Position numbers and translations under genes: made by a program. The notes under the pieces were generated by a model. That model was given only the letters and a program-made list of their open reading frames with translations, ran no database searches and was not told where the DNA came from. Below, one piece after another: positions 20,497-63,209 of a DNA stretch of 64,000 nucleotides (positions are counted from its first letter, which is position 1; the number at the start of each line of letters is the position of its first letter). Origin of the DNA: Glycera tridactyla (lineage: Eukaryota); the NCBI GenBank assembly GCA_965644265.1, contig OZ286460.1:19654001-19718000 (forward strand). Direction: 5' to 3'.

Positions 20497-21015
20497 TTAC
20501 ATTTTTGTCACTTCCTCATCTTTGGATTCTTCTGCTGGTTGTGGAGTGTGTTCTGTCCATGTATTGTCCGAGGGTTGAGACTCAGATGCTGCTGATGATG
20601 ACGACACAGGGATGGGAGAAGCTCTCTCAACATGGTTGCTATCACTTGAGGCGCCATCGGGGGCATTAGTAGTGGTTTCAGTCTCGGGGGCACATGCAGG
20701 TTTTGCATCATCACCGGTGCTCTCACTCACCAACTCACCTCCCATTGTCTGTTCGTCCTCCCCAGCCTCACTTTTTGTGTCCCTCTCCCCCTGTTTAGGT
20801 CCATCACCATTGCCTACTTTTTTAACATCTCCATTTGCTGGCTCATCAGCAATGGAGTTTTCTTGGCTATTGTCAATGGAGCTTGGTTGTAACGTGGTTT
20901 GTTCTGCTGGGGTCTCTGTAGATGACTGTAAGACGGCCGTCATTTGTTGTTTCTTATAATCCTCCTCCATCTGTTTGACCTTGGCCTCATGATCTCGCTG
21001 AATCTCTTCTTTCCG
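20497..21015 (-). CDS. PLCB: PLC-beta last coding exon ([22 protein letters not shown]... acidic tail ...EEVTKM-stop)
   Basis: ctgatttcag| then 519 nt open to stop, phase 0. Confidence 0.88.
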   Translation of the reverse strand, partial: RKEEIQRDHEAKVKQMEEDYKKQQMTAVLQSSTETPAEQTTLQPSSIDNSQENSIADEPANGDVKKVGNGDGPKQGERDTKSEAGEDEQTMGGELVSESTGDDAKPACAPETETTTNAPDGASSDSNHVERASPIPVSSSSAASESQPSDNTWTEHTPQPAEESKDEEVTKM

Positions 21016-24000
21016 CTGAAATCAGAAAAACAAGGCTAACAGTGGGAATCATGTATTACATGATATAAAATTGTACCAAAATATGGAAAGCGATACTGAT
21101 GATGACTTCACAGTTCTAGACTCATTCATGACTTAACACAATAATGGCAGTCACATAAGTTATAAAGATGCCGGCCTTTGGTTTGTATGACAAATTTTAT
21201 TTGGCTTTGAACGTCAATTGGGTTGCAAGGTGGTGTTGCAAACCACAAGTGAGAGGCTATTCGTTCAATCCTGGGCCAGTGCAAGAAAGAAGCGTTATTT
21301 TCAACTATAAAGTGATTGTACACAGTTAAAACACATCCTTTTTTCTCAGTTTCTGCATAATCCAATCATTGGTTCTTGTTGTCAAATATGGAAGTTTGAT
21401 ATGCTTGTCCTTACATACTTCCCCTATGTCCAATGAAACCTACAATAGGAGACCTTCTGAAGAGAGGCCATCTATTTTGAGATATCACTTTCTGGAAGCA
21501 CCTGTTCTGTTTCATAAGGATATAGTGTTTCTGAGTTGATATGGCATGAGTACACCAACAGTACAGTCAAACCTGTCCTAAGCAGTCACCCTTCGGGAAG
21601 GCAAAAAGTGGCTGCTTAGGGTAGGTGGCTGCTTAGAGCAGGTCAATTATAGTGGAAAAACCTCTGGTGGGAAATTCAAAAGTGGCTGCTCAGGGCAGGT
21701 GGCTGCTTAGTACAGTGGCTGCCTAGGACAGGTTAGACTGTAATTGGTAGAAGGACCTTCATCCTATCATTCTATCATTAAGATCATCCCTTGTAATGGT
21801 ATTCCTGCAAGAAAAAACTCATACACATGCTTAAATGCAATGACGTCCATTACACTGACCTTCACTCGTTCCTCCTCAACTTTGACCTTGAGTTGTTCTT
21901 GTCGTTCCAGCAGTTCTTCTTTACGTTTCTCCAGCATGTCGCGCAACTTCTGTCGCTCTTGCACAGCCAATGTGATGTGCTTCTGTTGTGCTTCCCGTTT
22001 TACACTGGAAATGAAAATGAAAATAAGCTCAAATTTTGAATGCTTCAATTTCCGAAGGAAAAGACTTCTATCAGAAAAGAAGTTGGTTTCATGCTCACTC
22101 CTGCCATGGGTTCTCCACCATTACCTCGCATTTATTGATTCTGCTCATATTTTAGGCCATGAATCATGCATAATAAATAAGATTCTCTCCATGATTCATG
22201 TCCAAGAACGAGCAGCAGACCTATCCAGCGTCTTCTGTCTATTGAGCTTGCAAAGAACACCGAAAGGAATTAGAACATTTGGCATCTCATTAGGATGAAG
22301 TTGCACAGCGGTTCAGAGAAAGTAAGAGCTTTCAGAAGCCATCTGGATCCTCTCGTCAGCGAGTGTCTATTGAGATGAGTTGGTGATCTGCGGATCCCAG
22401 CTAGATCAGCATCTGGCAAGGAGGGATATCAGGACGAGAAGACATCATGGAAATCAACCTGCCCCCCTGGAAAATCAACCTGCTCTGCTTACATATGCAA
22501 GTAATTTATGATTATTTTCTACCTGCCCACCTGTAAAATCCACTTGCCCCGGGAAGGTGGGCAGCTATCACTTCTCGCCCTGGATATTTATTCTAGTGAA
22601 TCCCGAATAGTTCAACAAATGTCAACAAAGCCTGTTTATTGTTATGATTTCTGCAACACTGTGACCATGCGATCACAGATTGGGAAATATCCACTTGCCA
22701 GATTTGACTTTGTCAGACTTCAAAACCCTGATAAATACACCACTCTTTCCTGAAAGATGGGAGTATACATACCGGGAAAGTTCACTCTTGTCTTTGTGTT
22801 TCTTGGCCAACAACTTCATCTCTTCTCGACTTAATCCGTCCAACTTCTTCTTCAGCTCCATCACCTCTTTATCATGGATTTCGTCAAGTTTCTTCAGCTG
22901 CTGATCTCGACTCACATCAATCAGTTGCTCCATTAAATCGTAGAGTTGTGGATGATAACGCATCAACAAATCCAACTCAGCTGAACACTGATCACGGAAC
23001 AATTCCAACATTGCCGCTATATGACCTCGCTTCATCTCTTTGTGCTGATAATCATAAATAGAACAAACTTGCATCAATTGAGAAAGCACCATAATTAAAT
23101 GAAAGAAAGCAATTGCAATGTTATCATGTATATTTGGCAAATTCTGAAGATAGCTCCACATTGTGGAAACTCCTTCTACCTTTTAGGAACTGCCAAATTC
23201 ATATTTGTATATTATAATATCAATTACTTGTATATTTCTTAATTATATAATATATGAAACCCTTAGATCTCGGGAAATCATATCTGAGGTTTAGATATAG
23301 TCAGCAGGTACTTATGGGTGACAGGTCAGAACTGGCCAAGGCGGAACTCTCTGCCCAAATTGTTGCTGATGCAAAAAAAAATCATGACAAAGTTGGATTT
23401 GTATCTGGCCAAAAACTAGAGTTGCTCGCCAGTGTTAATACCAATATGATTCAGTTACACATTCAAATCTCTACACAAGTATTTCAAAATTTCAGACATC
23501 ACAAATGTCTACCTTAAAAGTATGGTCAGGGAGATTCTAGGTGGCCTCCTGAAATAGGTTTCACGGTATAGAAACATTTTCAGATTGTGTTAGATCATGC
23601 ATGTACACATTGCACTATGAACCTACCTTGTTTTCTTGCTCAGATAGAAGTTGTGCGAGCTCCTGTGAATTGAGAGACTGAACCTCCTCGAGTTTACCAT
23701 GTTTTGAGGCACGTTTGATCGACTTTTTGTGCGTCTTCTCCGTTACTGTCTTGTTTTTGATCTGTGAGAGTAATAGCTTCTCCTCGTGAAGCTCATGTAA
23801 GTCATGCAAGTTTGTGCGGGCCTGTAAAGAAAAAAATCCAATGATGACCACAGCTCCCTATTTTTTGGTACCATAAATAGGCCCCAGAGAGAGAAATTGA
23901 AGTGCCTGCAAAATAATGTCAATCAACAACTTCCAAGGATGAATCATAGTCATGATTGTTATGTTGATATATTTCATACATGCATTGCTATTATGGCAGA

Positions 24001-46742: not shown

Positions 46743-46792
<50 letters not shown>

Positions 46793-46799
46793 GCACACA

Positions 46800-47597
46800 C
46801 TGGTGGACGTGTGCTGAATCAGCTATCGCTAATGGCTCATTGGGATTTGATCAGAATAACAAGATTTCATCGGGACTCAATCATTATAACAAGATGGAAA
46901 GTAATCAGTGAGTAAGAAGATTGGACAAAACAAGTTGGTGATAAAAGTCAGGACCAGCAAGGTTGATTAATTAGGGAAAAAGCATTAGGAGAGCTGGGAT
47001 GGAGATGCTGAGTTGTCAAGTCAGGATTGGTCCAGCGGTATGTTGAGAGGTAGCAACGCTGGATGCCAGGCATCTGACGTCATTTTGAAGGACACTGATT
47101 GGTCTGTCACCGGAAATCGAGTAATCATCATTAGTCTATCAAAAAGGTGGTGTAGGCGCTCTAGGAGGGGATTCACATCGGCAGCGCAGGCAGACCAGGA
47201 GGAGAGGTAAAGTGGGCATTCTTGCATGGAGTTATAATGGGCACAAACAGGGATCTGAGGTAAGCTTGACTATTAGAACCATGGACTCCTGAGTAGGTGG
47301 TCACAGAGGAAGGTACTATCTTTTTACCTAAGTTACCTGGGAACACCTGATTATCATTATTATTATTATTATTAGTATGATCTTCAGTGGTCCTGTTATT
47401 TAAGTTTCATCAGACAGCCAGTCATGCACCATGTCAAACGCGATCCTACTCTCACATGAAGCCAAGCAATTGTATGAAATGCTGAATTGATTGATTGATT
47501 GAGTTGATGTTGTAACATTAAACTAATATATAAATGGTATCTCTTTGTCCTTATCACTTTCCTGAAAGAGTATCCTGAAAATCCCTCCAGGATATTT
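46800..47597 (+). repeat. Putative 5' LTR (start not determinable; partner LTR absent from window)
   Basis: Non-coding block immediately upstream of the PBS; contains a CRE, two inverted CCAAT boxes and ATTAAA at ~47515; no second copy found in 63210-64000. Confidence 0.5.
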
Positions 47598-47613
47598 TGG
47601 TGGAGAATCAGGG
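47598..47613 (+). promoter_or_regulatory. Primer-binding site, tRNA-Ala type
   Basis: TGGTGGAGAATCAGGG; TGGTGGAGAAT is complementary to the ...ATTCTCCA-CCA 3' end of eukaryotic tRNA-Ala; located ~540 nt upstream of the gag ATG. Confidence 0.75.
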
Positions 47614-48002: not shown

Positions 48003-48136
48003 GGTATTTGTCAAAGGTGTGGGTGTTCTACATGTATTATATGATAGATTTGAGAGGTACGCTATGATGTGGGGTGGAATGTTTGGTGGATTAAGGTCTA
48101 ATATTAGCCGATTATTTACTTATTGGGGTGGTGAGC

Positions 48137-51100
48137 ATGTCGCTAAATGGAATACACGGACGTCGGCGGTCTAGACGCCTGCGTGGCTTAGAACCTTATA
48201 ATATTGACGAGTTTGATTTTGATTTATCTTCACATCACTCTGACCTTAGTCTGAATTTTGAGAATAATTGGGTGGATGTGTCACGGCCCAGCCCTACTGA
48301 TGGAGTGATTTCATTGCCAGATGAATGGTTTAGGGATGTGATACCTATCGGTGAAACTAGGGCGGAGAATAATATTGGAATACCATCCAGACCAGCATCC
48401 GTTGGTGATGTGGCAGTAGTGGATGTTGATTCATGGCCATTGGTGTCTACTGAAGGGTCTATAGTGGTCCGGACACCAGACACGTTAGACACATTGTCTG
48501 AACATTCTGATGACAACGTACTTGTACCTAGACTTGCAGATGGGGATACACTTTGGAATGCTGATGGGACACCTCGAGCTACATCGTCTCCTACATCAAT
48601 AGTGTCAGATGATGTTATCACTGGACCTTTGTTGTATCCAACACGAACAGTACATGGGGAAAGAAATCAGATGCAGAATGATGGGGTGTCACCTAATATG
48701 AATGCCTGGGACTATTCTGTGGGTAGCCCTCATCTTGTAACTCCTCCATTACCTGTTTCTGATTCTGATGCAATGAACCGGGACAGGGGGACACCTGTCT
48801 TGAGTGGCACGGCTTACCGTCCTGTGAGGGTGTCTGATATAAGGGCTACGACTGGTCGTGGCTTGTCTGATACATTGCCTGTTCAAATGTACCCTGAAAG
48901 TGGCTCTCCAGTTGAGTGTACATCTTCTGGTGGTGGGATATCCACGGCTGTTGGTTACATTCAAGGTATGGATAATAGGGCTGGTGGAAACATGGGGACT
49001 GGTGGTAATGTGGGCCCCTATGCTCCAGTGATTCAACCAGGTAGGTTAAATTTAGATGAAGACACGCCGATCAGAGAACCAAAGAACGCATTCGGAGTTA
49101 ATAAATCCACCAGACTTGCTGGGTCTGAGAGAGTGATAAGACCTAAACCAATATTTTTACGGGATCAAACGGTAAGTACCTCAAAACCAGCGGCTGCCTG
49201 GTTGAATACAAACACATCGGTTGTGTCGTCAGGTATGACTGCTATTTGCTCTGTAGCTGAGTCAATTCCTATTTTCCAGAGAGGGAGAGTGAGGGAGCAG
49301 GCAAGTAGATTTGAGGAGCAGGGACGAAATAGATACCACAGTCCAATATCAGCATATGGACAGGAAAGGGTGAGTGGCTCATCAACAGGATTGGTTAATC
49401 AAGACGGTCCTGTTTTTAGCTCAGAAACACTGAGAACACCAGGATCGTTTATATCATCATCTAGAAGGATACGGGTGAGTGAGTCTGGTCTTGATGAAAA
49501 TGTGCTAAACCAACTTCATAGACCAGAATTGTCTGGAATGGGTAATTACCTCGTTGATGCAGACCCTCTGGTGAGTGATGATGTGCATGAAATGTTTAGG
49601 GCATTACCCCGGGAACTATCTCACCCAGCGGCGGTCACACCCCTAGCTAAACCTGCGAAAAGTAAGGTAAGGCAACCTGTCTTTTGCCAAGGCACGAGTG
49701 AAAGAGTAACAACTTTACCGAATAATGCTGGTGAATGCCATAATAAAAAGCGAAAGATACCAGATCAACCAGGTACGGATGATGAGGTGCTGAGACCTGT
49801 GTTCAGGATGCCCCATTTTATAAGTAAAAATCAGGCTAGATGGACAAAAGGAGAGGCCTATTTTACTGGTGAATTCAATGTTGAAGGTAGGCCAGTGTAC
49901 GAATATATGTGGACACCTATAGGTACAAGAGATCCAACTGATCCTGACATGCAGGAGTGGATATATCAACAGTGTAAGGCGGCTGGAAAAATGGCACAAA
50001 AACCCAAACAATCAACGCAAAAACCTGGGGTGAGTTTTGCATCTGATGGCCACATTGGTGGGTGGAGGACAGACAACCAACCACCATCAACCAGCGGCTG
50101 GATTCCACGTAGGCCAGGTGGGTTGAGTAATAGGACTCCTATGAAAACAGGGATACAAAACCCTCCAACACCTGCTAGAGCAGGGGTGGATAAAAATTGG
50201 ATTGATAATCCAGATTACTATGGCAGGGATGTTATTTATAAAGTCACTGATGATGAGCTGTCGGATCCAGACAATGATAGTGAAGAGCCTGTGAGTGACA
50301 GTGATACTGGTGAGTATATAGCCCGACCTCGTAGAAATGAGAGGGGATCACTTAAAGACCGTATGTGTGCCATGATTGGTGACCTGGGTAGATCAGATGA
50401 TGAGGGGGACCGCCAAATTGATAGGTTGGGAAGGAATTCAAATGATAATGACCGTGCCCGGGATGTAAATGATAATTTGCTTCAAAATGTGGGTCATGAC
50501 CAAACTAGACAGGCACACCGACGTGCTAATGTACGGAATGTTCGGAGTCATGAACGAACAGCCGGTGGACAAAGTTTGGGAGGAGACAGACAGAGGTCAA
50601 TTGTAGTGGAAGGGAGTTCATCCATAATAAAATTAGAAAAATTCAACCCGACAAAAATGAACCCATTAGACTGGTTTTCACTTTTCGAAACATATGTGTC
50701 ATACAAAAACCTGTCAAATGAGGATGCTCTGCGAGTTTTTAGATTCAGTGTTGCGGGTGATGTTGCATCATGGTATTCCCTGCTGCCACCTGTGAGGTCG
50801 CTCAGGCAACTGAAAAATGCTTTCGTCAAGGAGTGGGGTGTAGACCCTGAAAAACGCTATGCTTATTTTAACCGATTATGGAAGATGAAGCAGAAGGGGC
50901 GTGACAGCAAGAAATTCATTAGATCAATAGTGAAAAAGGCACGACTGATGTATGGAGTGTCACCTGAGCGTCAATTGAATGAATCTCAACAGGATGAGGT
51001 ATGCAAAATTGTATTGAATGCTCTGGACAAAAGTGTGCGGCAATTTGTGTTAACCCAACGTGCAGAATCCCTAGATGAAATAATAGAAGCGGCCTCTCTA

Positions 51101-51667
51101 GCACAATCACTAGATAGTGGTTCTGAGAAATCCAGTGGGTCTGAAGATGAGTCTTCCTCTGATACTGATGGGGAGGATCGGAAGAAGAAACATAAGAAAA
51201 AGAAAGATAAAAAGAAGGATGATGATAGGGGAAATACATCCAGGGCCATTATGGTCTTGTTGGATGAGATGAAATCTATGAAGACATCATTACCAGATAC
51301 AGTAGCAGAAGCAGTGGGAAAGCAGGCTGCTGAAATTAAAAAGTCAACTGGGACCAGGCCTAAAAAAAATATGAATGATGGCGGAGGGAGTGAGAATCCT
51401 ATACCTCAAAATGGGGGATATAGAAGCAGGATGGGTCAGAGAAATAGCAACGAGAGGGCTAGGTCTGTATGTTACACTTGCCAAAAACCAGGCCATTTTG
51501 CCATTAATTGTCCTGAGAGAGGGAAAGGTGGAGGCAGAAGCAATATGGCTGTTTGTCAGCTATGTGCCCGGACGGGGCATGTAGCACCACAATGTCCCAG
51601 ACTGAACAGGCCAGAGAAACCTGTAGACAGACATTCACATGAACAGAGACAGGGGGAGGACCAATAG
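48137..51667 (+). CDS. gag: Gag polyprotein, 1176 aa from first ATG, with ~830-aa N-terminal extension
   Basis: Capsid-like block from ~50624 (KLEKFN...DWFSLFE...GDVASWY); two CCHC knuckles CYTCQKPGHFAINC and CQLCARTGHVAPQC at 51470-51595. Confidence 0.93.
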   Translation: MSLNGIHGRRRSRRLRGLEPYNIDEFDFDLSSHHSDLSLNFENNWVDVSRPSPTDGVISLPDEWFRDVIPIGETRAENNIGIPSRPASVGDVAVVDVDSWPLVSTEGSIVVRTPDTLDTLSEHSDDNVLVPRLADGDTLWNADGTPRATSSPTSIVSDDVITGPLLYPTRTVHGERNQMQNDGVSPNMNAWDYSVGSPHLVTPPLPVSDSDAMNRDRGTPVLSGTAYRPVRVSDIRATTGRGLSDTLPVQMYPESGSPVECTSSGGGISTAVGYIQGMDNRAGGNMGTGGNVGPYAPVIQPGRLNLDEDTPIREPKNAFGVNKSTRLAGSERVIRPKPIFLRDQTVSTSKPAAAWLNTNTSVVSSGMTAICSVAESIPIFQRGRVREQASRFEEQGRNRYHSPISAYGQERVSGSSTGLVNQDGPVFSSETLRTPGSFISSSRRIRVSESGLDENVLNQLHRPELSGMGNYLVDADPLVSDDVHEMFRALPRELSHPAAVTPLAKPAKSKVRQPVFCQGTSERVTTLPNNAGECHNKKRKIPDQPGTDDEVLRPVFRMPHFISKNQARWTKGEAYFTGEFNVEGRPVYEYMWTPIGTRDPTDPDMQEWIYQQCKAAGKMAQKPKQSTQKPGVSFASDGHIGGWRTDNQPPSTSGWIPRRPGGLSNRTPMKTGIQNPPTPARAGVDKNWIDNPDYYGRDVIYKVTDDELSDPDNDSEEPVSDSDTGEYIARPRRNERGSLKDRMCAMIGDLGRSDDEGDRQIDRLGRNSNDNDRARDVNDNLLQNVGHDQTRQAHRRANVRNVRSHERTAGGQSLGGDRQRSIVVEGSSSIIKLEKFNPTKMNPLDWFSLFETYVSYKNLSNEDALRVFRFSVAGDVASWYSLLPPVRSLRQLKNAFVKEWGVDPEKRYAYFNRLWKMKQKGRDSKKFIRSIVKKARLMYGVSPERQLNESQQDEVCKIVLNALDKSVRQFVLTQRAESLDEIIEAASLAQSLDSGSEKSSGSEDESSSDTDGEDRKKKHKKKKDKKKDDDRGNTSRAIMVLLDEMKSMKTSLPDTVAEAVGKQAAEIKKSTGTRPKKNMNDGGGSENPIPQNGGYRSRMGQRNSNERARSVCYTCQKPGHFAINCPERGKGGGRSNMAVCQLCARTGHVAPQCPRLNRPEKPVDRHSHEQRQGEDQ

Positions 51668-54600
51668 GACAGGTCATGGCCACCTGCAGAGAATGTAATA
51701 ATGGCATTGGACAATTATAGCAATCATCATACCAATGTAGGCGGAAATTTAGAAATTATGACATGGGATAGAGAAACAATAAATGCACCTATACAACAGA
51801 ATCTGATACAAATATTGATTAAAAATCGCCTCATAACGGCCATGTTGGACACAGGCGCCAGTGTGTCGGCTGTGGAGAGTGATTTAGTGATGAAGCTACT
51901 CCCTCATACCTATTCTACAAGAAAGAAATATACACAGGGAAAAGTGAAAGATGCCCAGGGAAATTATGTCAAAGTAGACGGGATAGTACAGTTGGATTTT
52001 GAGATCCAAAGTGAGAACTTTAGAATTGATGCTCTTATTGTTGAAAAGTTGCCAGTGACACTAATCTTAGGACTACCATTTTTTGTTGAACATGATGTAA
52101 GATTATCATGGGACTCTGTGAAAATTAGAGGAAATAATGCTGAGATTATTGCAACTCTTGTGCGTACAGTGGACAGCAGAGATAGTTTTAATTTAAAGGT
52201 TTGTTGTGACACGGTATGCGGGTCGTACCAAGCGACAATCCTTGATGTATATGGATCATCCAGGGGATGTGCCAAAGGCAGCCCTGTGTATGAAGACATA
52301 TGGTGTGTGAAGACACATAGGGATTTGGTAGATGGTGAAAATCTGATTGTATCCCCGGCAATTGCATATGTGGGCCCCAGGGGAACAGTTACAATTGAGA
52401 TAATTAACCCTACTTCCAGTGATGTAAGACTGTCCGCTGACCAGATAGTAGCAGTAGGAAAATTGTATGCTAAACCAAGTTCTATGGATAATATGTTGCT
52501 AAAGAACCAAGAACCTGTGAGGGGGATGAACTTAGAATATCCACAGATGACCAGTAATGAAACTCAGATGACCAGTAATGAAACTCAGATGACTAGTAAT
52601 GAAACTCAGATGACCAGTAATGAAACTCAGATGACCAGTAATGAAACTCAGATGACCAGTAATGATACACAGATGACCAGTAATGACTTGCAGATGGCCA
52701 GTAATGAAGCACAGATGACCAGTAATGAAACTCAGATGACCAGTAATGAAACTCAGATGACCAGTAATGAAACTCAGATGACCAGTAATGATACACAGAT
52801 GACCAGTAATGACTTGCAGATGGCCAGTAATGAAGCACAGATGACCAGTAATGAAACTCAGATGACCAGTAATGATACACAGATGACCAGTAATGACTTG
52901 CAGATGGCCAGTAATGAAGCACAGATGACCAGTAATGAGACGTGCACAACCAGTAATGAAACCCAGGTTACCAGTGAGGATGCTCAGATTTCTAGTAATG
53001 ATGCTCAAACAATTGATGCTAGAACTCAGATTATTGATGATGGAGTACAAACTAGTGGTGATATGATTAACCTGATGCAGGTATTACGATCATTTGAACT
53101 GAAAGTACCGCCGGTAATGATTATGATTGAAACCAATGATTTAAGGGTTGTGGCTACACAAACTGAACCAGATATATTGAATCAGACGCGTGTGATAACC
53201 TACAAACCGATTGACTGGCAACAGTATCTAGATGATGACTTGCCTGAGGATGTTTATGAAAAACTTATCAAGGTGTTGGAGTTCCATAGGCCATGTTTTG
53301 CTATGGACTTGTCAGAGTTAGCAAGAGTGAATGATTATGAACATGTTATTGAACTGAAACATGATGCCAAGGTAGTGCACCAAAAACCGTATCGTGTGAC
53401 ACCTGAGAATAGTATAGAAATCGAGAGACAGATAAAAATTTTGCGTGAACATGGGCTAGTAGATTTTAGTGATTCCTACTGGTCGAGCCCTGTGTTATTG
53501 GTAGACAAGAAACCTGATTTCCCTGGAGCACCAATCACCAAAAGACTTTGTATTGATCTGAGGAAATTAAACAGGGAAATTTTACTGAATAGCTTCCCAG
53601 TACTGACGCTCGATGAAATTATTCATCGACTGGCGATAGCTAAACATAAATGGTTTATTAATCTTGATTTGAAATCTGCATATTTCTCTATCCCTTTGTC
53701 ACCAGAAAGTCAACATCTGGTGTCATTTGTTACGCAGAGTGGCTGTTATAAAATGACTTCCTGTCCGTTCGGGTTAAAAAGCTCGCCGAGCAGTTTCTCT
53801 CAGGTGATGATGAGGTGCTTAGCACCATTAGATCAAACCAAGATATTGAACTATATGGATGATATCGTGTTGACAGGAGACACGCCTGAGGATCTCCTGG
53901 AAACATTGAATGCAGTGTGTTGGAGACTCAGGACTGTTGGGTTATCACTCACGCCATCCAAGTGTCATTTCATGAAGAGACAGATAAAATTCTTAGGCCA
54001 AATATTTGATCAGACAGGATGCCGATCAGACTATGCGAAGATAAAAACTGTGGCTATCTTTCCCACCCCGACTGATGTACGAGGAGTGCGTAAGTTGATG
54101 GGATTGTTGAATTGGCAGAGACGGTATATAAACCGATTTAGTCATTATGCATCAGTCCTTTATGAACTCCTTACAAAGGATGCCGAGTTTGAATGGACTG
54201 ATAAGCATCAGAAGGCAATGGACTGGCTGAAAACTCAAGTGCTGGAAAATGTAGTGCTATACTACCCGAAAGTAGACCACCCCTTTGTGATATACACGGA
54301 TGCATCGGCAAGAGCTGTGGGCTCATTAACATTACAGAAGGATGGTGACAGTCAATTGAAACCTGTGGCATTTCTCAGCCACTGCCTATCTAAAGCACAA
54401 CAAAAATATCACTCAAACGAACTGGAAGTTTTAGCAGTTGTTATTGCACTGACACATTTGAAATATTTCATCACAACGGAAACTCCTGTTGAAATCTTCA
54501 CGGATAATGTTACTAATGTATTTTTCCAATCATTGTCTCTGAAAACAGGTCGGCTATTTCGCTATCATCTGTTCTTATCGAGATATAATTTGAAAATCAG

Positions 54601-57499
54601 GTTCACTAATGGGTGGAGAAATCAATGCGCCGACACTTTGAGTAGATTTCCGAATTTGGAAAATTTGGAAGAACTGCAGGATGAAGGACTAGACAACATT
54701 ACACATACAGATATACCGACATCAATCAATTACAAACACACAATACAAACAATAAACTGCATAATGTCTATGGGTGAGCTGACTTCCGATAGCGCTGAGG
54801 TATTTGAATCAGAGTTTGAGGCAGATGAGAGTTCTCTTTGGCAGGTACCTGATAAATACCTTTTGCCAGTCATTTCAGAGTCTGTTTCTGAGAAGAAAGT
54901 AGTACCCCAATGGTCAGATAGATTGGTTACACAAGAAGCAAGTAGTATTGCGAATGAGCGATTATATGACAGGGAATCGGAATTTTGCATGTTTGATAGA
55001 CCAGCTGGGGCACGAGAGGCGGTGACACGGCCTGTTCCGGCTGATAAAGCGAGTCATCCTGGTGGGCAGTCGGATGAAGAACCACCACCGGGAGGGCTGC
55101 CCGAGCATCACGACGAGGGTGTAGATGACACGCAGGCTATAGACGCTCCCCTCGTACCGAGGCCTCGACTGTTATCAGATGAACGGCAGTCAACTGTAAA
55201 CAATCAGAAAGACATGGGAGGTATTAGGGATGCTGATTATGATATCGTGGGTGACGGTATATTTGAGACTGGGGATGAACTGATAAAAAGACAGACAAGA
55301 TTTTGTGAAGGAAGCCCTGAAAACCTATTGCGATTTTTCCGTGATGAACAGACAGATATACGGTTTGAACAAATTGACGACCGCTTGGGGCAAGACTTTG
55401 AAGACCTGCAATTATCATTTTTACATGATACCGCCAAATTGGCTGAAGAACAACATTTAGACAGTGATTTTAAACATATTATTGAGTACAAACAGGCTGG
55501 TGAATTGCCTACCATTAAGAAACAGGCAATGAAGGTGTTGGCTGAAGACCACAAATACTTTTTGGATGAAAATGGAATACTTTACCGCATATATACACAT
55601 TCAAAAGGGAAATCTGCTAAAACATATAGACAATTGTGTCTACCTGCTCAATATCGAGCCAGGATGGCCCATTTATTTCATGATGGACCAATGGCTGGTC
55701 ATAGAGGTTTTGACAAAATGTACACATTGGTGATGCAGTATTTCTACTACCCCAGGTGTTATGAAGAATTGCTGAAGTATTGTCAAACCTGCGAAATTTG
55801 TGCTAAATCAAAGGTCACTCAAGGGCAAGTGAGAGTACCGCTGCAAATTAGAGAAGCTCCTGTATATATATTTGACACAGTACACATCGATTTTTTGAAG
55901 TTATATAAGACACGTGACGGATATGTATATGTTTTATCTATGATTGATCGGTTCACACATTGGGCGGAATTAGTACCCACTAAAGATCAATTAGCAAAGA
56001 CAACAGCTTTAGCTGTCGTGCGAGAATGGATATTTCGCCATGGCTTAATGAGATGCATTATTTGTGACCGATCTATGTCATTCATGGGGCAAGTATTCAG
56101 AAATATTTTGAAATTACTCAAGGTAAGAATGATTTTCATTTCACATATGAACCCAAAAAGTAATAGCCGGGTGGAAACACTTAATCGGTTGGTAATATCT
56201 AAACTGAGAGCGTCCTTACAACAAGTTTCACATACAGATTGGACAGAATTACTACCTGCAGTGGCATTCACATTGAACACGACTCCACTGCCTTGTGGCT
56301 TTTCACCATATCAATTGGTGTGTGCTAAATCACCAAATTTGGGGAGTCAAATGCTTCTAACTGATCCCTCCATGATACCTGAGGATCCAAGAGAAGTCAT
56401 CCGGGAATTGTGGGGAGATTTAGCAATTATTCGTATGGAGGCTCAGAAAAATATGCTTGAACTCGATAAAGCCATGAAAGCTAGGTATGATCGGAAATAT
56501 AGAACTAAACCTGATGAATTTCGTGAGGGAGATCTAGTGTGGCTGGTGGCACCACACACCATCCTGGTGGGTCAGGGCAAGCTGAAATCAAAGAAACTGG
56601 GCCCATTTGAAATTGCATGTAGGGTGGCCCCCACATTGGTTCAATTATGCCTGGTTGATTCGGCAGTGTGGTTGCCATCATTGACCAGCACCAGCAGGTT
56701 AGTGCCATACGTACATCCTGTTAATTCATCATTACGTATGCAATTACAAACTGAAGTAAAAATTAATAAGAAACATGAGCGCTTTGCAAATTTGGGACGA
56801 GTTGAGTGGGAACAGGAACTAAATGAGAATGATGATGTGACAGGTAACTTACCCATAAATGATGATGAAAACGCTTCACAGGATGTGGCTGACCAATGTA
56901 ACTCCCCACCGTTATTGGATAGTGGCGAAGGTGTGGATGATGTGCCTCAAAGAATGGTGTCCTCGACATCTGGTGATGGAGGGGTGTCCAATAGTCGAAG
57001 AAATGTACAAACTGTATGTGAATCCACAGTGATATCCGGTGTTGGAATGTCTCATGGTGGGCACACAAAAATAACAGAAATGTCAGATAGTGGAATAATT
57101 GACCCACCAGCTCAACCTACGGCCAGTCATATAATTCACTCTGATGACGTCCAAAATGATGCGGATGCGGATGATGGAAATGAGAGAGCTGTTGCTTCTC
57201 AAAAATGTAGATCAAAACGTAAATATTTACAAATGTACAATCGTGCAAAAATATATGGTAACCGATTGGCTGCTACTTCCCGGGGCAAGCCTACTAGCAA
57301 TGTCAAACAAAAAGTGGCTGGAGTATCCAAAAGTGATTTGGCCAAGGATATAGTAAAACTGCTTGCATCAAGGAAAAGTAAAGATGGTACGAGGAGTTTT
57401 GAGTGTTTGTACGCGACTCATCCTAGGTCATGGCTGAAGGAGTCCTTGATCCCGACAGTTTTTATCGACGATTATGATTATCGGCACCGGGTGAAATGA
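51668..57499 (+). CDS. pol: Pol polyprotein (protease, RT, RNase H, integrase), same frame as gag after a single TAG
   Basis: LDTGAS (D at 51848); RT YMDD (53852); RNase H YTDAS/ELE/FTDN (54299 onward); IN HHCC (55679-55801), D-D-E core (first D 55889), GPF (56600). Confidence 0.97.
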   Translation, partial: DRSWPPAENVIMALDNYSNHHTNVGGNLEIMTWDRETINAPIQQNLIQILIKNRLITAMLDTGASVSAVESDLVMKLLPHTYSTRKKYTQGKVKDAQGNYVKVDGIVQLDFEIQSENFRIDALIVEKLPVTLILGLPFFVEHDVRLSWDSVKIRGNNAEIIATLVRTVDSRDSFNLKVCCDTVCGSYQATILDVYGSSRGCAKGSPVYEDIWCVKTHRDLVDGENLIVSPAIAYVGPRGTVTIEIINPTSSDVRLSADQIVAVGKLYAKPSSMDNMLLKNQEPVRGMNLEYPQMTSNETQMTSNETQMTSNETQMTSNETQMTSNETQMTSNDTQMTSNDLQMASNEAQMTSNETQMTSNETQMTSNETQMTSNDTQMTSNDLQMASNEAQMTSNETQMTSNDTQMTSNDLQMASNEAQMTSNETCTTSNETQVTSEDAQISSNDAQTIDARTQIIDDGVQTSGDMINLMQVLRSFELKVPPVMIMIETNDLRVVATQTEPDILNQTRVITYKPIDWQQYLDDDLPEDVYEKLIKVLEFHRPCFAMDLSELARVNDYEHVIELKHDAKVVHQKPYRVTPENSIEIERQIKILREHGLVDFSDSYWSSPVLLVDKKPDFPGAPITKRLCIDLRKLNREILLNSFPVLTLDEIIHRLAIAKHKWFINLDLKSAYFSIPLSPESQHLVSFVTQSGCYKMTSCPFGLKSSPSSFSQVMMRCLAPLDQTKILNYMDDIVLTGDTPEDLLETLNAVCWRLRTVGLSLTPSKCHFMKRQIKFLGQIFDQTGCRSDYAKIKTVAIFPTPTDVRGVRKLMGLLNWQRRYINRFSHYASVLYELLTKDAEFEWTDKHQKAMDWLKTQVLENVVLYYPKVDHPFVIYTDASARAVGSLTLQKDGDSQLKPVAFLSHCLSKAQQKYHSNELEVLAVVIALTHLKYFITTETPVEIFTDNVTNVFFQSLSLKTGRLFRYHLFLSRYNLKIRFTNGWRNQCADTLSRFPNLENLEELQDEGLDNITHTDIPTSINYKHTIQTINCIMSMGELTSDSAEVFESEFEADESSLWQVPDKYLLPVISESVSEKKVVPQWSDRLVTQEASSIANERLYDRESEFCMFDRPAGAREAVTRPVPADKASHPGGQSDEEPPPGGLPEHHDEGVDDTQAIDAPLVPRPRLLSDERQSTVNNQKDMGGIRDADYDIVGDGIFETGDELIKRQTRFCEGSPENLLRFFRDEQTDIRFEQIDDRLGQDFEDLQLSFLHDTAKLAEEQHLDSDFKHIIEYKQAGELPTIKKQAMKVLAEDHKYFLDENGILYRIYTHSKGKSAKTYRQLCLPAQYRARMAHLFHDGPMAGHRGFDKMYTLVMQYFYYPRCYEELLKYCQTCEICAKSKVTQGQVRVPLQIREAPVYIFDTVHIDFLKLYKTRDGYVYVLSMIDRFTHWAELVPTKDQLAKTTALAVVREWIFRHGLMRCIICDRSMSFMGQVFRNILKLLKVRMIFISHMNPKSNSRVETLNRLVISKLRASLQQVSHTDWTELLPAVAFTLNTTPLPCGFSPYQLVCAKSPNLGSQMLLTDPSMIPEDPREVIRELWGDLAIIRMEAQKNMLELDKAMKARYDRKYRTKPDEFREGDLVWLVAPHTILVGQGKLKSKKLGPFEIACRVAPTLVQLCLVDSAVWLPSLTSTSRLVPYVHPVNSSLRMQLQTEVKINKKHERFANLGRVEWEQELNENDDVTGNLPINDDENASQDVADQCNSPPLLDSGEGVDDVPQRMVSSTSGDGGVSNSRRNVQTVCESTVISGVGMSHGGHTKITEMSDSGIIDPPAQPTASHIIHSDDVQNDADADDGNERAVASQKCRSKRKYLQMYNRAKIYGNRLAATSRGKPTSNVKQKVAGVSKSDLAKDIVKLLASRKSKDGTRSFECLYATHPRSWLKESLIPTVFIDDYDYRHRVK
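52544..53005 (+). repeat. In-frame 21-nt tandem repeat in pol (QMTSNET x19 plus ~3 degenerate units)
   Basis: Unit CAGATGACCAGTAATGAAACT, read directly; variant block NDT/NDL/ASNEA recurs three times. Confidence 0.97.
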
Positions 57500-57715: not shown

Positions 57716-59122
57716 TTATAGATTGTTTTGGCCATTCTCGATGTTGATGGCGCTGGCCAGGGATGTGAGCGCTCGGCGGTTTCGGTTGTGTGGACGGCTA
57801 CGGCGGGCTAGCTGTGTGCGTCGGATGATGGGTCGAGATTCCTGCGCCATGGGTCGGATTGTCATTACAAGCCTCCGTCTTGGTGGGTTGGCTGGAGGCT
57901 GATGTGGATAATCTGAGCCACCGTGATTGGTCTCTGACACGGATTCCGTGACTTCATTCGCTGCAACGGCCTGGTCTTGCGTAATGTAGTCAACGGCCAT
58001 CCGTGTGGATATTGTCATGTCATTTGTACTCAGATCCATGGGTGACCCTTGGGGGGATGATGGAGCTGAATGGGGGTGACTGGAGGGGCTGCCCTCTGGT
58101 GTCCTCTCAGATTGGGGGGTCTCCGATTCCCCGAAGAATCTGTAGATGGGGTACATTCCTGTGGGTGACTGGGATACCCTGGGATTTGTACCTGATGTGG
58201 ATGTCTCCAGAGTCGGGTCCTCATATTGGGTGGCAACACTGGTGTATGTTGTCTCCACTTGGGTACCTTGGTCAACGGTACCTGGTGAGGTGGTTGGGCC
58301 ACTTGTGGGAATGCGTGGGTTGGTTGACCTGTTATGGTGATAGGCTGCAGTGCGTACCTGGGAAGGGTGTAGGTGTGACTGGTTGTTCATCATGAGGGTG
58401 GATGGAGCACTGGGCATTGCCGCAGTGTTAGTTAGCAAGGTCGAGGATGATCCAGGGTGTGTAGCCCATGTTGGGGGCATGGGTACAACTTGGGTTGGAT
58501 ACCCACTGTTGTATGGATATCCTGATCTTGCACGCCCGATGTGTGGTGGTATCACACATTCAAGTCGACCAGTTGTCCAGTACTCCCGTACCGCATTGAT
58601 CAATGGGTGACACGGTTGAATGTCGTACATACCATGAAAATGGATGCGGGAATGCAGTTCGATATATTCAGTCTGGTCATGAATGGTGAGGGCGAGTACC
58701 GAGAACGACCTTGGTGTCGAGAAGACATGATGCAGCAGGGCTCTGGCCCCTTCGTCCTGCATTGGATGTCGGCTGCGCTGGCGTCCATACACTTGTAGAA
58801 AATGATCGGCACCCACTTCCCGGATAGTAGGTGCGCTCACATACTTATATTGCAGTAATTTCTTCATTGCAAGGCAGAACCGAGTGTTCCGCTCGACTTG
58901 CATCTCGGTAGGTTGGTAGAAGGTTACGATCTGTGACTCCGTCATGATGTTTGATGTCAGTTTGTCTTGGATGATGAAATGAGTATCAACAGGAACAACT
59001 GTGATGAGTGTGTGGTAGGGTGTAGATCCAAGTGAGGAATGATCTGCAGAGGTGAGTATCTCGAAATGTGGCATCAGGGGGAGGAGCTGATTCTGATTGG
59101 AAATCAGTGAGTGGTGAGTCAT
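57716..59122 (-). CDS. Antisense accessory ORF of the retroelement, 468 aa, unknown function
   Basis: 1407-nt uninterrupted ATG-initiated frame filling the pol-env gap, with no long sense ORF opposite it; ordered-looking N-terminal ~190 aa, S/T/P-rich disordered C-terminus, Arg-rich tail. Confidence 0.85.
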   Translation of the reverse strand: MTHHSLISNQNQLLPLMPHFEILTSADHSSLGSTPYHTLITVVPVDTHFIIQDKLTSNIMTESQIVTFYQPTEMQVERNTRFCLAMKKLLQYKYVSAPTIREVGADHFLQVYGRQRSRHPMQDEGARALLHHVFSTPRSFSVLALTIHDQTEYIELHSRIHFHGMYDIQPCHPLINAVREYWTTGRLECVIPPHIGRARSGYPYNSGYPTQVVPMPPTWATHPGSSSTLLTNTAAMPSAPSTLMMNNQSHLHPSQVRTAAYHHNRSTNPRIPTSGPTTSPGTVDQGTQVETTYTSVATQYEDPTLETSTSGTNPRVSQSPTGMYPIYRFFGESETPQSERTPEGSPSSHPHSAPSSPQGSPMDLSTNDMTISTRMAVDYITQDQAVAANEVTESVSETNHGGSDYPHQPPANPPRRRLVMTIRPMAQESRPIIRRTQLARRSRPHNRNRRALTSLASAINIENGQNNL

Positions 59123-59189: not shown

Positions 59190-59625
59190 CAGTGATAAGA
59201 CGTAATAGTGGGAGCCCAAATGGATTGGACAGGTGGGCAGGTAGGTTGTTGGGGTCGTAGATTACGACATCACTGTGGCACAGGTGGTCGAATGATTAAA
59301 GGGGGGTCAGTTAGTTGGTGATGATGGTCTGACTTGATGTAAAGTAGACCATTGTATGTATGTCTACTCGATGCATAGTGGATATTGGTGAAACGGAGCT
59401 TCAGCTAGGAGCTGTGGAGGTGTAAGATTGAAGCCGAGGGTAATTAATCAACATGATGGAAAGTGAATGGTAGTTGCTCATGGCGGAGAGCTATAGAAAA
59501 TGGGGTGAGGCTTAATCAGACCGTTTAGAGAATTAAATTGGGCAGATGGAAGAAGTATAAATGAGAGACGATGGACGACGGCACGGGAGGCGACTGTATG
59601 ATTAATCACGCAGGATACGCGTGGC

Positions 59626-59644
59626 CTCTGTTTTATGTTTTCAG
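59626..59644 (+). promoter_or_regulatory. Splice acceptor for subgenomic env mRNA
   Basis: ctctgttttatgttttcAG|G, 4 nt before an in-frame ATG (59649) and 49 nt before the signal-peptide Met (59694). Confidence 0.65.
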
Positions 59645-59648
59645 GAAT

Positions 59649-62600
59649 ATGTGTGATGACCGCCTGAGTGAGCACGACATGGCCGGGAAGGAGATGTACC
59701 CAACGTTAATTGTGTTAATAGTCACGTATGTAAATGTAATTAGTGTAAATAGTCAGATGAGTGAAGGTATAGGTGGTGACAATGTCCTGAATTATGGTGT
59801 TTGGTTTGCACCAAAAGGCAGTTATCAAATATCAAATGAGAATTATCATTTGATATTGGCGGTAGATATACCTGGATTGAGAGGTGGTGATGAAAATGTT
59901 AAAGCCAGGTGTAATATGGGAGAGAAAGGGAAGTCTTGTCAAGGGAAGAAATTGCAAGCTGTAATAACACAGTTGAACAGAGGCAAGAGACTTATCGATG
60001 ATAGTACCTGCCAATTGTTTGAAACAATAGTAGATGAGATAGATACCTACGAGTTAGAGATGGACCAACGTTTGGCCAGAGTGATGCTGACTACAGACTA
60101 TGCATGGTGGGTGGATGATGTGATGCGGAATAAATATGAGAAAGTGCTGAAATCTAAAACAATTAAAAAGAAGTCAAGACAACGAGAAAGGGCAGATGAT
60201 GCCTACTGGTTGATGAGTATAACTAATGAAAATGAGACTGGTGAAGTGCAGACAGAAAAAAATTTGCAGCTAGGACATGGGACCAAGAATAGGCCACGGA
60301 AGGGGGTTGGCTATATCGAGACGCCTGTCATCAAGCTGAAGAAGGGCCATGTGAAGACGCCAGTGAAACACTTACTGGTGGCTGGGAGGCGATGGCAGCA
60401 ACAAATAGCTGACAATTGTGTTTATACAAATATATCTGAGTGGGGTGAGGATGTGGGTACTTCTCCAAGTGATTCTTCTGTTGCAGACAGTTTGCAGAAA
60501 CTACATGGGTTACTGATGGCTGTCCAGAAAAAGGTTACAAATTCTGTACTAAAGGATATTGGAATATTCAATGAATCAGAATGGATGAAGTGGTCTAGTT
60601 CCCAAGAAATATCTCGAGACATGCAGAATATGGTTGTTGATTGGGTGTGGCGAATTCAAAATGAAATACCTCCTAAAAAGTTGCAATTGGAATTGATTCC
60701 ATTATTGCGAAAACTGGGTGTGTACAGTCATCAATTAGCCAGAGAAAGGAAAAATACAGCCCGAGTTTCCGAAAGATATCTGAATAAAACTGTCATAACC
60801 CGACTAATTGAATCCTTGGACCACTTGGCAAATTTACGACTTGTGAATCAGAATGTAGTGGATATGCAGAGATTTCGAAAGCGGATTCGACGACTATGGG
60901 TTCGCATGAATATGGCACTGAACCAACAAGACCAAATGCCGTTGCATTGGTCCACTATTAAAAGTGATATGTGGGAATCGCTATTTGGTTCAGCTACGTT
61001 TGCTCAAGTTGACGAAATAATTCATGTGATTAACGGTGTCACCAACAATAGTAGTAATCGACGGGAAATTCGGAAATCGTATTTCGCGAACACCACTGCG
61101 TATATTACAGTGTCTTCGAGAATGGCCATCGAGTTTAAACGTGTGGTGAGACGTCTGAAAATGGCCATCGGCCTGTTGAGTGATCAGTCGGAGATGGAGG
61201 GGGAATATGACATAAATGCCATGTCATATATAATAAACAAAGCCACCAATATAGCCATAGGACTATCATTAGTCCGTTCAAAAATCGAGCACTTTGCAGA
61301 TGGTCTCCGAGAATTGCTCAAGGGAAAATTGACACCTCAAATAATCTCGGAAGATGATTTGCAAGAAGCATTGATACAGCTGGAAATAGAGCTGAGGGCA
61401 AGAGAGTCAAGGTTTCATGTTCTGACATTTGACTCTGCCCACTATTATTCAATTAAGAACATTGCTCATGTAAGAAATCAAAACCAGTTAATAATTGTAT
61501 TACCAATAGAAGTAACTAGACAGTCTCAAAATTTTCATTTATACCAGTTATCAGTATATGACATTCCAGTCAATAGCATTGAGAATTTGACTTCACGATT
61601 GGTTTCGGATATTGCAATAGTAGGGTTAAGCGAGTCAAAAACAAGGTTCATACAACTCACACATCAACAATGGATGTTATATGACAAAGAAAATAAATGG
61701 ATAAGCAACAGTGATATTCAAGTGTATAATCATGAGAATCTTACATGTGAAATGGCTCTATTCTGGAACAAGATGGTAGAGGTTAAGAAGTTATGTGAAT
61801 TCAGATTAGAACAAAAGCCGCTACAAATGAAATTGCACATCCTACCTAGGGGTGAATTGGTAGTCATGAATGCCGAAGAACTGATAGTGGCTTGTCAAGA
61901 CCGCCCCTATGTGAGGAAATCAGGGTGTGAAGTCTGCATACACCCACTAAAATGTGGATGTGAATATGTGGGTAGATTAAAGGATGATAGATTGGTGATC
62001 AACTCGAGAATGACAAAATGTGTGACTGAAGTAGAGAAGAGGCCACCCAAAACCATACTTCATATGTCTATCATACAGTATCTAGTACCTGAGGAATGGT
62101 TGCTGGGTGATGGTAGTGAAATTCATAGACAGAAAGACAATATCCCTGATATACCACTCAGGGTTAATCAGGGGCATTATGAGCAGTCAATATGTGGGCC
62201 AATTGAGTTTTCAATGAACCTTGAGAAGGCATTGGATAGGGTAAAAGCAGGTGAAAAATTATCACCAATTCAGCAGATTGATTGGGCATCCTGGAAAATA
62301 ATTCATGTTTCAGACTTTTTCACATTATCCACATGTGTCAGTATGGGTGAATGGGTATTGAGCACAGTGATAGTACTGGCTCATGTAAGAACAGCTCGAA
62401 GAGTGAATGAATTGGCACAGAGGGTTAATGGCATCATCATAATGAATCAACTTCGAGCAGCTAGGGCTATGAATGTTTTGGTTGGAATGAATACAAACAT
62501 GACAGAAACAAATAGATCAAATGCAGGGGGTGAGATAATTAGCCAGCGTGAGGGTATATTACTTCTGTTGCTGGTAGTCATTATACAACTTGCAATTGTG

Positions 62601-63209
62601 TTGGTGTGTCTTTTGAAATACTGTTTGAAAGTACAACCACATTCAGAAATAGCATGGGTCGTTTTGACATTACGAGGTAGGGATAAGTGTACAGTTAAGG
62701 TTAAGAAGCTCTATTGTGCCCCTCATGCGATTCGAATGCTAGCAGAAGGACCGCCCTCAGATATTAGATTAATTGGTCCCATACTTAAATCGAAATTATA
62801 TGTCTACTGGGGAAACAGGGAATTGATAGATAACGGAAATGGGGTCATTTATTACCTACCAAATGTGATTGATATTTCTATGTCAAGAGGACTACGAATT
62901 GCAGCCCTACTCAGAGAAACCTATCAAGTCACAGTTGACATTGTGTACAGGGATCGAGAGGGAAAATGGACTGCAGGGAATCGGTTGAGGTGTGATGAAC
63001 CTACAGAGGTTCACCCATATGTCAGAGAAAACAGTAATAGTAGTAGGCAGAATAGAATTCGAGAAGAACTACCACCTCCTTATGAACTTCATCAGCTTCG
63101 AAATCTCCGAAGCACTACCCGGGAAGGCCGGATTATGTTAAGCCCATTACCTTCGAGTTCATCAGATAGCGACCAATCAACAGAACGAGGACATACCAGA
63201 ACCAATTAA
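59649..63209 (+). CDS. env: Envelope-like glycoprotein (F-type/class I fusion-like), ~1170-1190 aa
   Basis: Signal-like MYPTLIVLIVTYVNVISVNS; LNYGVWF-x(11)-HLILAVDIP N-terminal motif; polybasic RFRKRIRR; SLFGSAT; GKLTPQIIS; Cys cluster; two C-terminal hydrophobic segments. The open frame extends up to ATG 59571. Confidence 0.85.
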   Translation: MCDDRLSEHDMAGKEMYPTLIVLIVTYVNVISVNSQMSEGIGGDNVLNYGVWFAPKGSYQISNENYHLILAVDIPGLRGGDENVKARCNMGEKGKSCQGKKLQAVITQLNRGKRLIDDSTCQLFETIVDEIDTYELEMDQRLARVMLTTDYAWWVDDVMRNKYEKVLKSKTIKKKSRQRERADDAYWLMSITNENETGEVQTEKNLQLGHGTKNRPRKGVGYIETPVIKLKKGHVKTPVKHLLVAGRRWQQQIADNCVYTNISEWGEDVGTSPSDSSVADSLQKLHGLLMAVQKKVTNSVLKDIGIFNESEWMKWSSSQEISRDMQNMVVDWVWRIQNEIPPKKLQLELIPLLRKLGVYSHQLARERKNTARVSERYLNKTVITRLIESLDHLANLRLVNQNVVDMQRFRKRIRRLWVRMNMALNQQDQMPLHWSTIKSDMWESLFGSATFAQVDEIIHVINGVTNNSSNRREIRKSYFANTTAYITVSSRMAIEFKRVVRRLKMAIGLLSDQSEMEGEYDINAMSYIINKATNIAIGLSLVRSKIEHFADGLRELLKGKLTPQIISEDDLQEALIQLEIELRARESRFHVLTFDSAHYYSIKNIAHVRNQNQLIIVLPIEVTRQSQNFHLYQLSVYDIPVNSIENLTSRLVSDIAIVGLSESKTRFIQLTHQQWMLYDKENKWISNSDIQVYNHENLTCEMALFWNKMVEVKKLCEFRLEQKPLQMKLHILPRGELVVMNAEELIVACQDRPYVRKSGCEVCIHPLKCGCEYVGRLKDDRLVINSRMTKCVTEVEKRPPKTILHMSIIQYLVPEEWLLGDGSEIHRQKDNIPDIPLRVNQGHYEQSICGPIEFSMNLEKALDRVKAGEKLSPIQQIDWASWKIIHVSDFFTLSTCVSMGEWVLSTVIVLAHVRTARRVNELAQRVNGIIIMNQLRAARAMNVLVGMNTNMTETNRSNAGGEIISQREGILLLLLVVIIQLAIVLVCLLKYCLKVQPHSEIAWVVLTLRGRDKCTVKVKKLYCAPHAIRMLAEGPPSDIRLIGPILKSKLYVYWGNRELIDNGNGVIYYLPNVIDISMSRGLRIAALLRETYQVTVDIVYRDREGKWTAGNRLRCDEPTEVHPYVRENSNSSRQNRIREELPPPYELHQLRNLRSTTREGRIMLSPLPSSSSDSDQSTERGHTRTN

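Follow-up and report, generated by a model that had tools for sequence, protein, structure and literature searches.

A young Ty3/gypsy element of Glycera tridactyla, about 18.9 kb long and with identical LTRs, carries an antisense gene between its pol and env-like ORFs, and the predicted product of this gene holds a conserved pair of TQ motifs, of which at least the first probably binds the host protein LC8. The evidence for the gene is firm, conservation within one genome supports the LC8 reading well, and a CtBP reading, which a preliminary description of this DNA had placed beside it, is weaker than proposed. The window, meaning the whole stretch that was analysed, comprises 64,000 nt (assembly GCA_965644265.1, OZ286460.1, positions 19,654,001–19,718,000, forward strand). 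Coordinates are window positions unless marked otherwise, and published papers are cited from the portions of them available to us. The features are as follows.

46760–46789 of the window; L028 2714–2750; L045–L056; L031 8240–8297; L030 9598–9657: (CA)n flanks.
46789–47594, plus strand: 5′ LTR, 805–806 bp, first base ambiguous; (CA)n on both outer sides.
48095–51667, plus strand: gag ORF with two CCHC zinc knuckles.
51668–57499, plus strand: pol ORF with protease, RT, RNase H, integrase and an SH3-like domain, in Ty3/gypsy order.
57716–58945, minus strand: antisense accessory ORF; ATG 58945, its likely start, gives 409 aa; whole-ORF dN/dS 0.21 against the C17 copy.
57773–57823, minus strand: Arg-rich C-terminal stretch, 8 Arg in 17 residues; Arg-rich in four aligned subfamilies.
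57983–57997, minus strand: AVDYI, residues 317–321, a second hydrophobic motif 15 codons past PMDLS, absent from the preliminary description.
58028–58042, minus strand: PMDLS, residues 302–306; PxDLS-type in the window's and the nearest subfamily only.
58220–58240, minus strand: predicted LC8-type site 2, SVATQYE, residues 236–242; Tyr at +1 atypical.
58253–58273, minus strand: predicted LC8-type site 1, DQGTQVE, residues 225–231.
58532–58945, minus strand: folded N-terminal alpha/beta domain of about 138 aa, without recognised family.
59565–63209, plus strand: env-like ORF, 1,214 codons, with hydrophobic stretches N-terminally and near the C-terminus.

The element has the paired LTRs, the CCHC gag and the protease–RT–RNase H–integrase order of Ty3/gypsy elements (Metaviridae). 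Its 3′ LTR lies just past the window end (L028 1908–2713) and is the same as the 5′ LTR at 806 of 806 nt. The nearest protein-database relatives of its RT/RNase H are at most 36% identical, among the 120 matches listed of 198. From its position and hydrophobic stretches we infer that the ORF at 59565–63209 is env-like; a Pfam search of this ORF returned no matches.

Several further observations concern the element and its setting. Gag and pol share a reading frame and are separated by a single stop codon (51665–51670), likewise in the C17 and C7 copies, which suggests read-through. Directly inside the 5′ LTR, positions 47598–47612 form a primer-binding-site-like sequence, which we take to resemble the 3′ end of tRNA-Ala, and the LTR terminus is GATA, not the usual CA. 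Between protease and RT, pol contains tandem 21-bp repeats (52520–53030) that encode 7-residue Gln/Thr/Ser-rich units, each with TQM or AQM, and in the C17 copy this repeat run is far shorter. PPPY, presumably a WW-domain or late-domain-type motif, occurs towards the end of the env-like ORF, in its tail (window 63060–63090). Host exons at 20497–23182 on the minus strand resemble, we presume, the C-terminal part of a phospholipase C beta, and the element would lie in or near their gene.

The stop-free minus-strand frame runs from 59269 to 57716. The product is likely 409 aa, starting at ATG 58945, because homologues start at the equivalent Met and stops lie upstream of it. Specifically, three of four diverged copies have in-frame stops at most 12 codons upstream of this Met, and the extension upstream of 58945 is interrupted by a stop in one young, near-identical copy. 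A start at the first ATG (59122) was rejected. Values of dN/dS were obtained by a simple counting method from one pair, the window and the unbroken C17 copy. In this comparison, dN/dS is 0.057 over the first 138 codons, which encode the N-terminal domain, 0.35 over 257 aligned codons of the tail, where the alignment is uncertain, and 0.14 over the 19-codon TQ block, with 0.29 for the env-like ORF and 0.34 for gag. Furthermore, third codon positions account for 63 of the 89 differences from C17 in the N-terminal domain, over which each of the other five frames is broken by 3–7 stops. Judged by these comparisons, the minus-strand ORF is a protein-coding gene under purifying selection. No AATAAA, ATTAAA or AATATA occurs in the 330 nt past its stop. 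The Arg-rich C-terminal stretch is among the top-ranked tail windows for conservation and is a candidate nuclear-localisation or nucleic-acid-binding segment. Three other tail motifs, VPMPPTW (154–160), YRFFGES (268–274) and HQPPANP (348–354), are conserved equally with the TQ pair and are unexplained.

AlphaFold models built from six-row alignments show an alpha/beta domain, with pLDDT mostly 70–90 over residues 10–105. The N-terminal domain contains 15 K+R and 13 D+E and is not clearly basic. Searches outside this genome yielded no homologue of the antisense protein among 5,970 candidates at near length, among 98 candidates at longer length or among 1.84 billion representatives, and no usable match in the Atlas. 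None of 11 stretches from viral contigs was confirmed as a homologue. A single metagenomic candidate out of 105 gave a 30-residue match at 44% (L044), which is probably a chance match and was set aside, and the bacterial BtrH_N family, which came up only in leads under 0.9, was rejected. Pfam assigned no family to the ORF, with one weak unrelated hit among six aligned members, and the one hit from a profile search against PDB sequences has E = 0.4. Foldseek found no fold match for the N-terminal domain in PDB and BFVD at E ≤ 0.001. The best VIA-align score among 48,161 chains was Z = 4.3 (ACT-like and other alpha/beta arrangements). These searches point to no function, nor do they imply a new fold. 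The protein contains a conserved HFHG, which we likened to the HUH-endonuclease motif; this reading is unsupported, with no HUH protein among the listed fold matches.

A search of the genome itself gave 27 matches among 39 candidates scored. Six of these are young copies, in all of which the ORF is free of stops and differs from that of the window by 0–6 bases; the other matches fall in nine diverged places, some with tandem partial duplicates. A genome search with the most distant relative added no further places. The homologues compared come from a single genome and form four subfamilies. Between the window's element and the C17, C7 and C18 elements, identity is 90–98% in the integrase core but 35–59% in the antisense protein, so the TQ pair survives in a fast-evolving protein.

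At C39:20.04 Mb and C39:49.16–49.17 Mb (L012, L014–L024, L027), decayed segments of the antisense ORF occur in tandem partial duplications, with units of about 1 kb and 0.84 kb. Synonymous divergence from the C17 copy (L036) is 1.49 in the antisense N-terminal domain (58945–58532), 0.26 in env and 0.63 in gag, and the higher value in the N-terminal domain hints that the antisense cassette may have been exchanged between lineages.

The preliminary description reported a CtBP-type PMDLS and two LC8-type TQ segments in a disordered half of the antisense protein. All three are present in one minus-strand frame, PMDLS at 58042–58028, VDQGTQVET at 58276–58250 and TSVATQYED at 58243–58217; the span of 58276–58220 given for the two TQ segments starts correctly and ends one codon short of the final D (58217). 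Their location in a disordered half agrees with the composition of the tail, in which 101 of 271 residues are S, T or P, and with the AlphaFold models, in which pLDDT is below 50 over residues 106–409, although such low confidence from a shallow, six-row alignment is by itself weak evidence of disorder. No long helix is modelled in the tail.

To estimate how often the motifs arise by chance, the 271-residue tail was shuffled 20,000 times with its composition preserved. An exact PxDLS arises with P = 0.004, and a broader CtBP pattern with P = 0.105. At least one loose TQ anchor arises with P = 0.47 and at least three, the observed number, with P = 0.02. For two strict 8-residue LC8-like sites close together P is 0.0001, which is overstated, the pattern having been written after the sequence was seen, and all of these P values are uncorrected for the many motif classes that a reader scans for. 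Conservation is the better test, and it supports the TQ pair, not PMDLS.

The two Gln anchors of the TQ pair are 11 residues apart in all four subfamilies, in a protein that falls to 35% identity. Specifically, sites 1 and 2 read DQGTQVE and SVATQYE in the window, DQGTQVE and SVSTQYE in C17, NQGVQVK and DVSTQYE in C7, and VQSTQTE and NVGTQHS in C18. Site 1 of C17 is identical at seven of seven residues despite four synonymous changes, and the anchor of site 1 changes only among mid-sized polar or hydrophobic residues (TQV, VQV, TQT). In the four-way alignment, which was scored in overlapping tail windows and carries X at the stops of two broken copies, site 2 ranks 6th and site 1 12th of 265 tail windows; without the C17 row, the TQ sites rank 5th and 20th of 267. 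The sites thus fall in the top 5–8% of tail windows, and per-site binomial tests are modest (P = 0.03–0.14). The pair is found in the six young copies and at seven of the nine diverged places (C17, C32, C7, C18, C39:49.154M, C39:49.158M and C39:20.045M), two of the seven with a changed anchor (site 2 has a stop in L012, and site 1 has His for Gln in L016). At the remaining two places the region is missing, by truncation in L013/L038 and by deletion in L014. Site 2 of the most distant subfamily is documented by a single copy (L011), the decayed copies of the C39:20.04M array having stops there. The LC8 half of the preliminary description thus withstood the conservation check, with both TQ sites and their 11-residue spacing kept in four divergent subfamilies and with LC8 encoded by the host, whose genome contains two intronless LC8 genes, with an LC8 sequence at L041 1489–1758.

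The reported anchor rules for LC8 call for a mid-sized residue, Gln and a mid-sized residue, with a polar residue at −4, a large one at −3, a non-aromatic one at −2 and Pro, Asp or Glu at +2 (PMC6607443). Read by eye, DQGTQVE of site 1 fits all of these rules, at −4, −3, −2, the anchor and +2. SVATQYE of site 2 fits from −4 to 0 and at +2, but its Tyr at +1 is larger than the preferred mid-sized residue, and the main texts of the LC8 motif papers PMC6607443 and PMC5746249 contain no TQY or TQH. Many TQ-anchor peptides do not bind LC8; in PMC6607443, 7 of 19 motif-predicted peptides bound. With an 8-residue motif at 11-residue spacing, the linker between the two sites is 3 residues, the length described as optimal for cooperative LC8 binding, short linkers being said to promote cooperativity between weak sites (PMC12803091). 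Panoramix is dimerised by LC8 at 2:4 via two close sites (PMC7861614). We consider it likely that LC8 binds at least site 1; that both sites bind LC8 as a 2:4 ladder has somewhat better than an even chance.

Pol also contains a canonical TQT-type sequence, RVVATQTEP, at about residues 492–501 in the linker between protease and RT. It is found in L029 and L035 as well, with ATQTGP in L040, and could be a second LC8 site or reflect conservation of a protease site.

E1A and EBNA3 are PxDLS-type CtBP recruiters, and CtBP exons are present in the host genome. PMDLS is the exact CtBP motif of Knirps (PMC9890238), and PLNLS, as in the CtBP recruiters SOX6 and EGL-13, is a shown CtBP site (PMC8816384); as in these proteins, the motif of the antisense protein lies in a predicted disordered region. 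In shown repressors, PxDLS is more conserved than its flanks (PMC9890238), whereas PMDLS here is not. It survives as PMNLS, with synonymous changes, in the nearest subfamily (L007, L008 and L009), but the aligned position reads LIVIS in C7, PIVIS in C39:49.169M, and PIVIA in C18 and C39:20.04M. PMDLS ranks 205th of 265 tail windows in the four-way alignment and 167th of 267 without the C17 row, and its four identities out of five in the near subfamily equal the background (63%, P = 0.39). On conservation, therefore, the CtBP half of the preliminary description did not hold up, no PxDLS-type motif being present at this position in the two distant subfamilies, and its conservation in the near one being indistinguishable from background.

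AVDYI is better conserved than PMDLS, ranking 13th of 267. Relatives carry AIDYS, AIDHS, VIDYS, VFDLK, and VIDFK or VIDLK at the same 45-nt offset from the first motif; the offset is 46 nt in the frameshifted L014/L015 copies, and the motif is deleted in C17. The SUMO-binding motif of PIAS1 is VIDLT (PMC4907222). Likeness to such motifs is close in the distant subfamilies (VIDLK, PIVIS) and weak in the window's own AVDYI and PMDLS, so that the pair of the distant subfamilies resembles tandem SUMO-interacting motifs. What is conserved, then, is a putative hydrophobic docking pair, and its partner may have changed. CtBP binding by PMDLS is plausible for the window's subfamily only. Because distant subfamilies carry SUMO-motif-like sequences at the PMDLS position, CtBP would not form the conserved core and would at best be a partner that can be exchanged.

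The ends of eight copies were checked (the six young copies, C17 and C7, which represent three subfamilies; the C18, C31, C32 and C39 copies aside). (CA)n/(TG)n, in either orientation, surrounds or adjoins every one of the eight, although in two of them, C47 and C13, the repeats are imperfect or slightly offset. In the host part of the window, (CA)n/(TG)n amounts to 96 of 46,500 bases, masked stretches aside. These flanks suggest microsatellite-targeted integration.

In the account that we favour, the two TQ sites would engage a pair of LC8 dimers from the host, and these would align two molecules of the protein next to each other, making it work as a dimer. In this form the Arg-rich end and the folded domain would act on chromatin or RNA of the element itself, inside the nucleus, and a nuclear site of action is, on balance, slightly favoured. 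The dimer might then tune transcription of the element through its hydrophobic docking motifs 15 residues apart, a step to which we give rather less than an even chance; in the window's subfamily the first of these motifs, PMDLS, is likely able to bind CtBP. As a whole, the account of an LC8-dimerised nuclear accessory protein that tunes transcription through the docking pair is tentative, falling a little short of even.

The same motifs have been, or could be, read otherwise. Following the preliminary description, recruitment or sequestration of CtBP by PMDLS could be the central function, with LC8 only adding avidity, and the match to Knirps (PMC9890238), the rarity of an exact PxDLS in shuffled tails, the PMNLS of L007, L008 and L009 with its synonymous changes and the presence of CtBP in the host would suit this, as would AVDYI/AIDYS if they formed a second, non-canonical CtBP site; the two distant subfamilies without a PxDLS-type motif at this position, together with the low ranks of PMDLS and its background-level conservation in the near subfamily, make it unlikely. 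We also regard as unlikely a decoy that mimics a piRNA silencing scaffold, draws factors off the element and raises its expression. Its two-site LC8 layout is that of Panoramix (PMC7861614), the PIVIS or PIVIA followed by VIDYS or VIDLK of the distant subfamilies comes near the PIAS1 VIDLT (PMC4907222), and fast divergence relative to the integrase fits host conflict, but Panoramix has no known homologue outside insects (PMC7861614), the window's own motifs are less like SUMO-binding motifs, and the direction of the effect is not readable from sequence. Combining these elements into an antisense-encoded mimic of a piRNA scaffold, with an LC8-dimerised domain, a SUMO/CtBP-swappable pair and an anti-silencing or (CA)n-targeting role, in a lineage skipped by published filters, gives a picture that we hold to be doubtful. 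It is improbable, too, that the LC8-dimerised N-terminal domain recognises (CA)n/(TG)n and directs the integration complex to such repeats: although the eight of eight checked copies contrast with the scarcity of such repeats in the host bases, and plant antisense ORFs are predicted to bind DNA (PMC11963269), the nearly invariant integrase with its own SH3-like tail is a simpler source of specificity, and the N-terminal domain is not clearly basic and has no DNA-binding fold match in Foldseek PDB or VIA-align searches.

Two further readings concern the TQ pair itself. The gene may be real and its short motifs chance matches in a Ser/Thr/Pro-rich tail that is conserved for another reason; 47% of the shuffled tails do contain a loose TQ anchor and 10% a broad CtBP pattern, and only four subfamilies from one genome were compared, but the fixed spacing, the class-preserving substitutions and the low dN/dS of the TQ block render this quite unlikely. 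There is, finally, a small probability of a cytoplasmic role, in which the TQ sites would couple particles or RNA to dynein light chains, serving transport or assembly, and a conserved Tyr-Glu-x-Pro overlapping site 2, which we take to resemble an SH2 ligand, would serve as a phosphotyrosine signalling site. YEDP, YEPP and YESP in three subfamily groups would then explain the atypical Tyr of site 2, and pol too has a conserved ATQT in the protease–RT linker. However, the most distant subfamily has no Tyr at site 2, the Arg-rich tail and the hydrophobic pair better fit a nuclear role, and LC8 is mostly a dimerisation hub independent of dynein (PMC7861614).

An antisense ORF after pol is typical of plant Retand elements, in which such ORFs carry TRP28 and are of no known function (PMC11963269), and general statements on antisense ORFs in Ty3/gypsy elements appear in PMC8220671 and PMC6431247; the available portion of PMC5408684 contains no relevant passage on antisense ORFs. 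Like the plant elements Retand, Grande and RIRE2 (TRP28, PF04195), the present one is a long Ty3/gypsy element with an antisense ORF downstream of pol; for the plant ORFs a regulatory role has been proposed, the Grande protein is nuclear, and LC8 or CtBP motifs are not mentioned in the portion of the source at hand (PMC11963269). Unlike in the plant elements, the host is an animal, the ORF lies between pol and an env-like gene, and no TRP28 or other Pfam hit was obtained. HBZ, whose gene lies near the 3′ end, is a bZIP protein; the protein described here differs from it in having an alpha/beta domain and no long helix modelled in its tail, and in being encoded upstream of env. It shares with HBZ and APH-2, which are nuclear regulators, its origin in an accessory gene on the minus strand of a retroelement (PMC11963269).

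The element resembles the 'ancient errantiviruses' of invertebrates in its LTR-gag-pol-env layout and in being intact and multicopy, and differs from them in its extra antisense gene and its 18.9-kb length (PMC13524379). Elements entered that survey only if pol and env were separated by 1,000 nt or less and the LTRs by 14,000 nt or less. In this element the pol–env gap is 2,065 nt and the LTRs are about 18,100 nt apart, so the survey would have filtered it out. The word 'antisense' does not occur in the main text of PMC13524379. Panoramix (of the PICTS complex), KANK1 and Nup159 share with the antisense protein at least two close TQ-type sites with short linkers in a disordered region; these, however, are host proteins with measured LC8 binding, whereas the present protein is encoded by the element, and no sequence relationship to them was found. 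In the openly available literature, Repbase aside, we found neither an animal env-bearing Ty3/gypsy element described as carrying such an antisense gene nor a retrotransposon accessory protein described as using LC8.

Antisense accessory genes are known both from complex retroviruses and from plant Ty3/gypsy elements, and what they do in retrotransposons is described as unsettled (PMC11963269, PMC8220671). The conserved motif pair, 20 residues long, names a specific candidate host partner, LC8. If the protein does engage LC8 together with CtBP or SUMO, it would be a case of a retrotransposon using the host's transposon-silencing hub.
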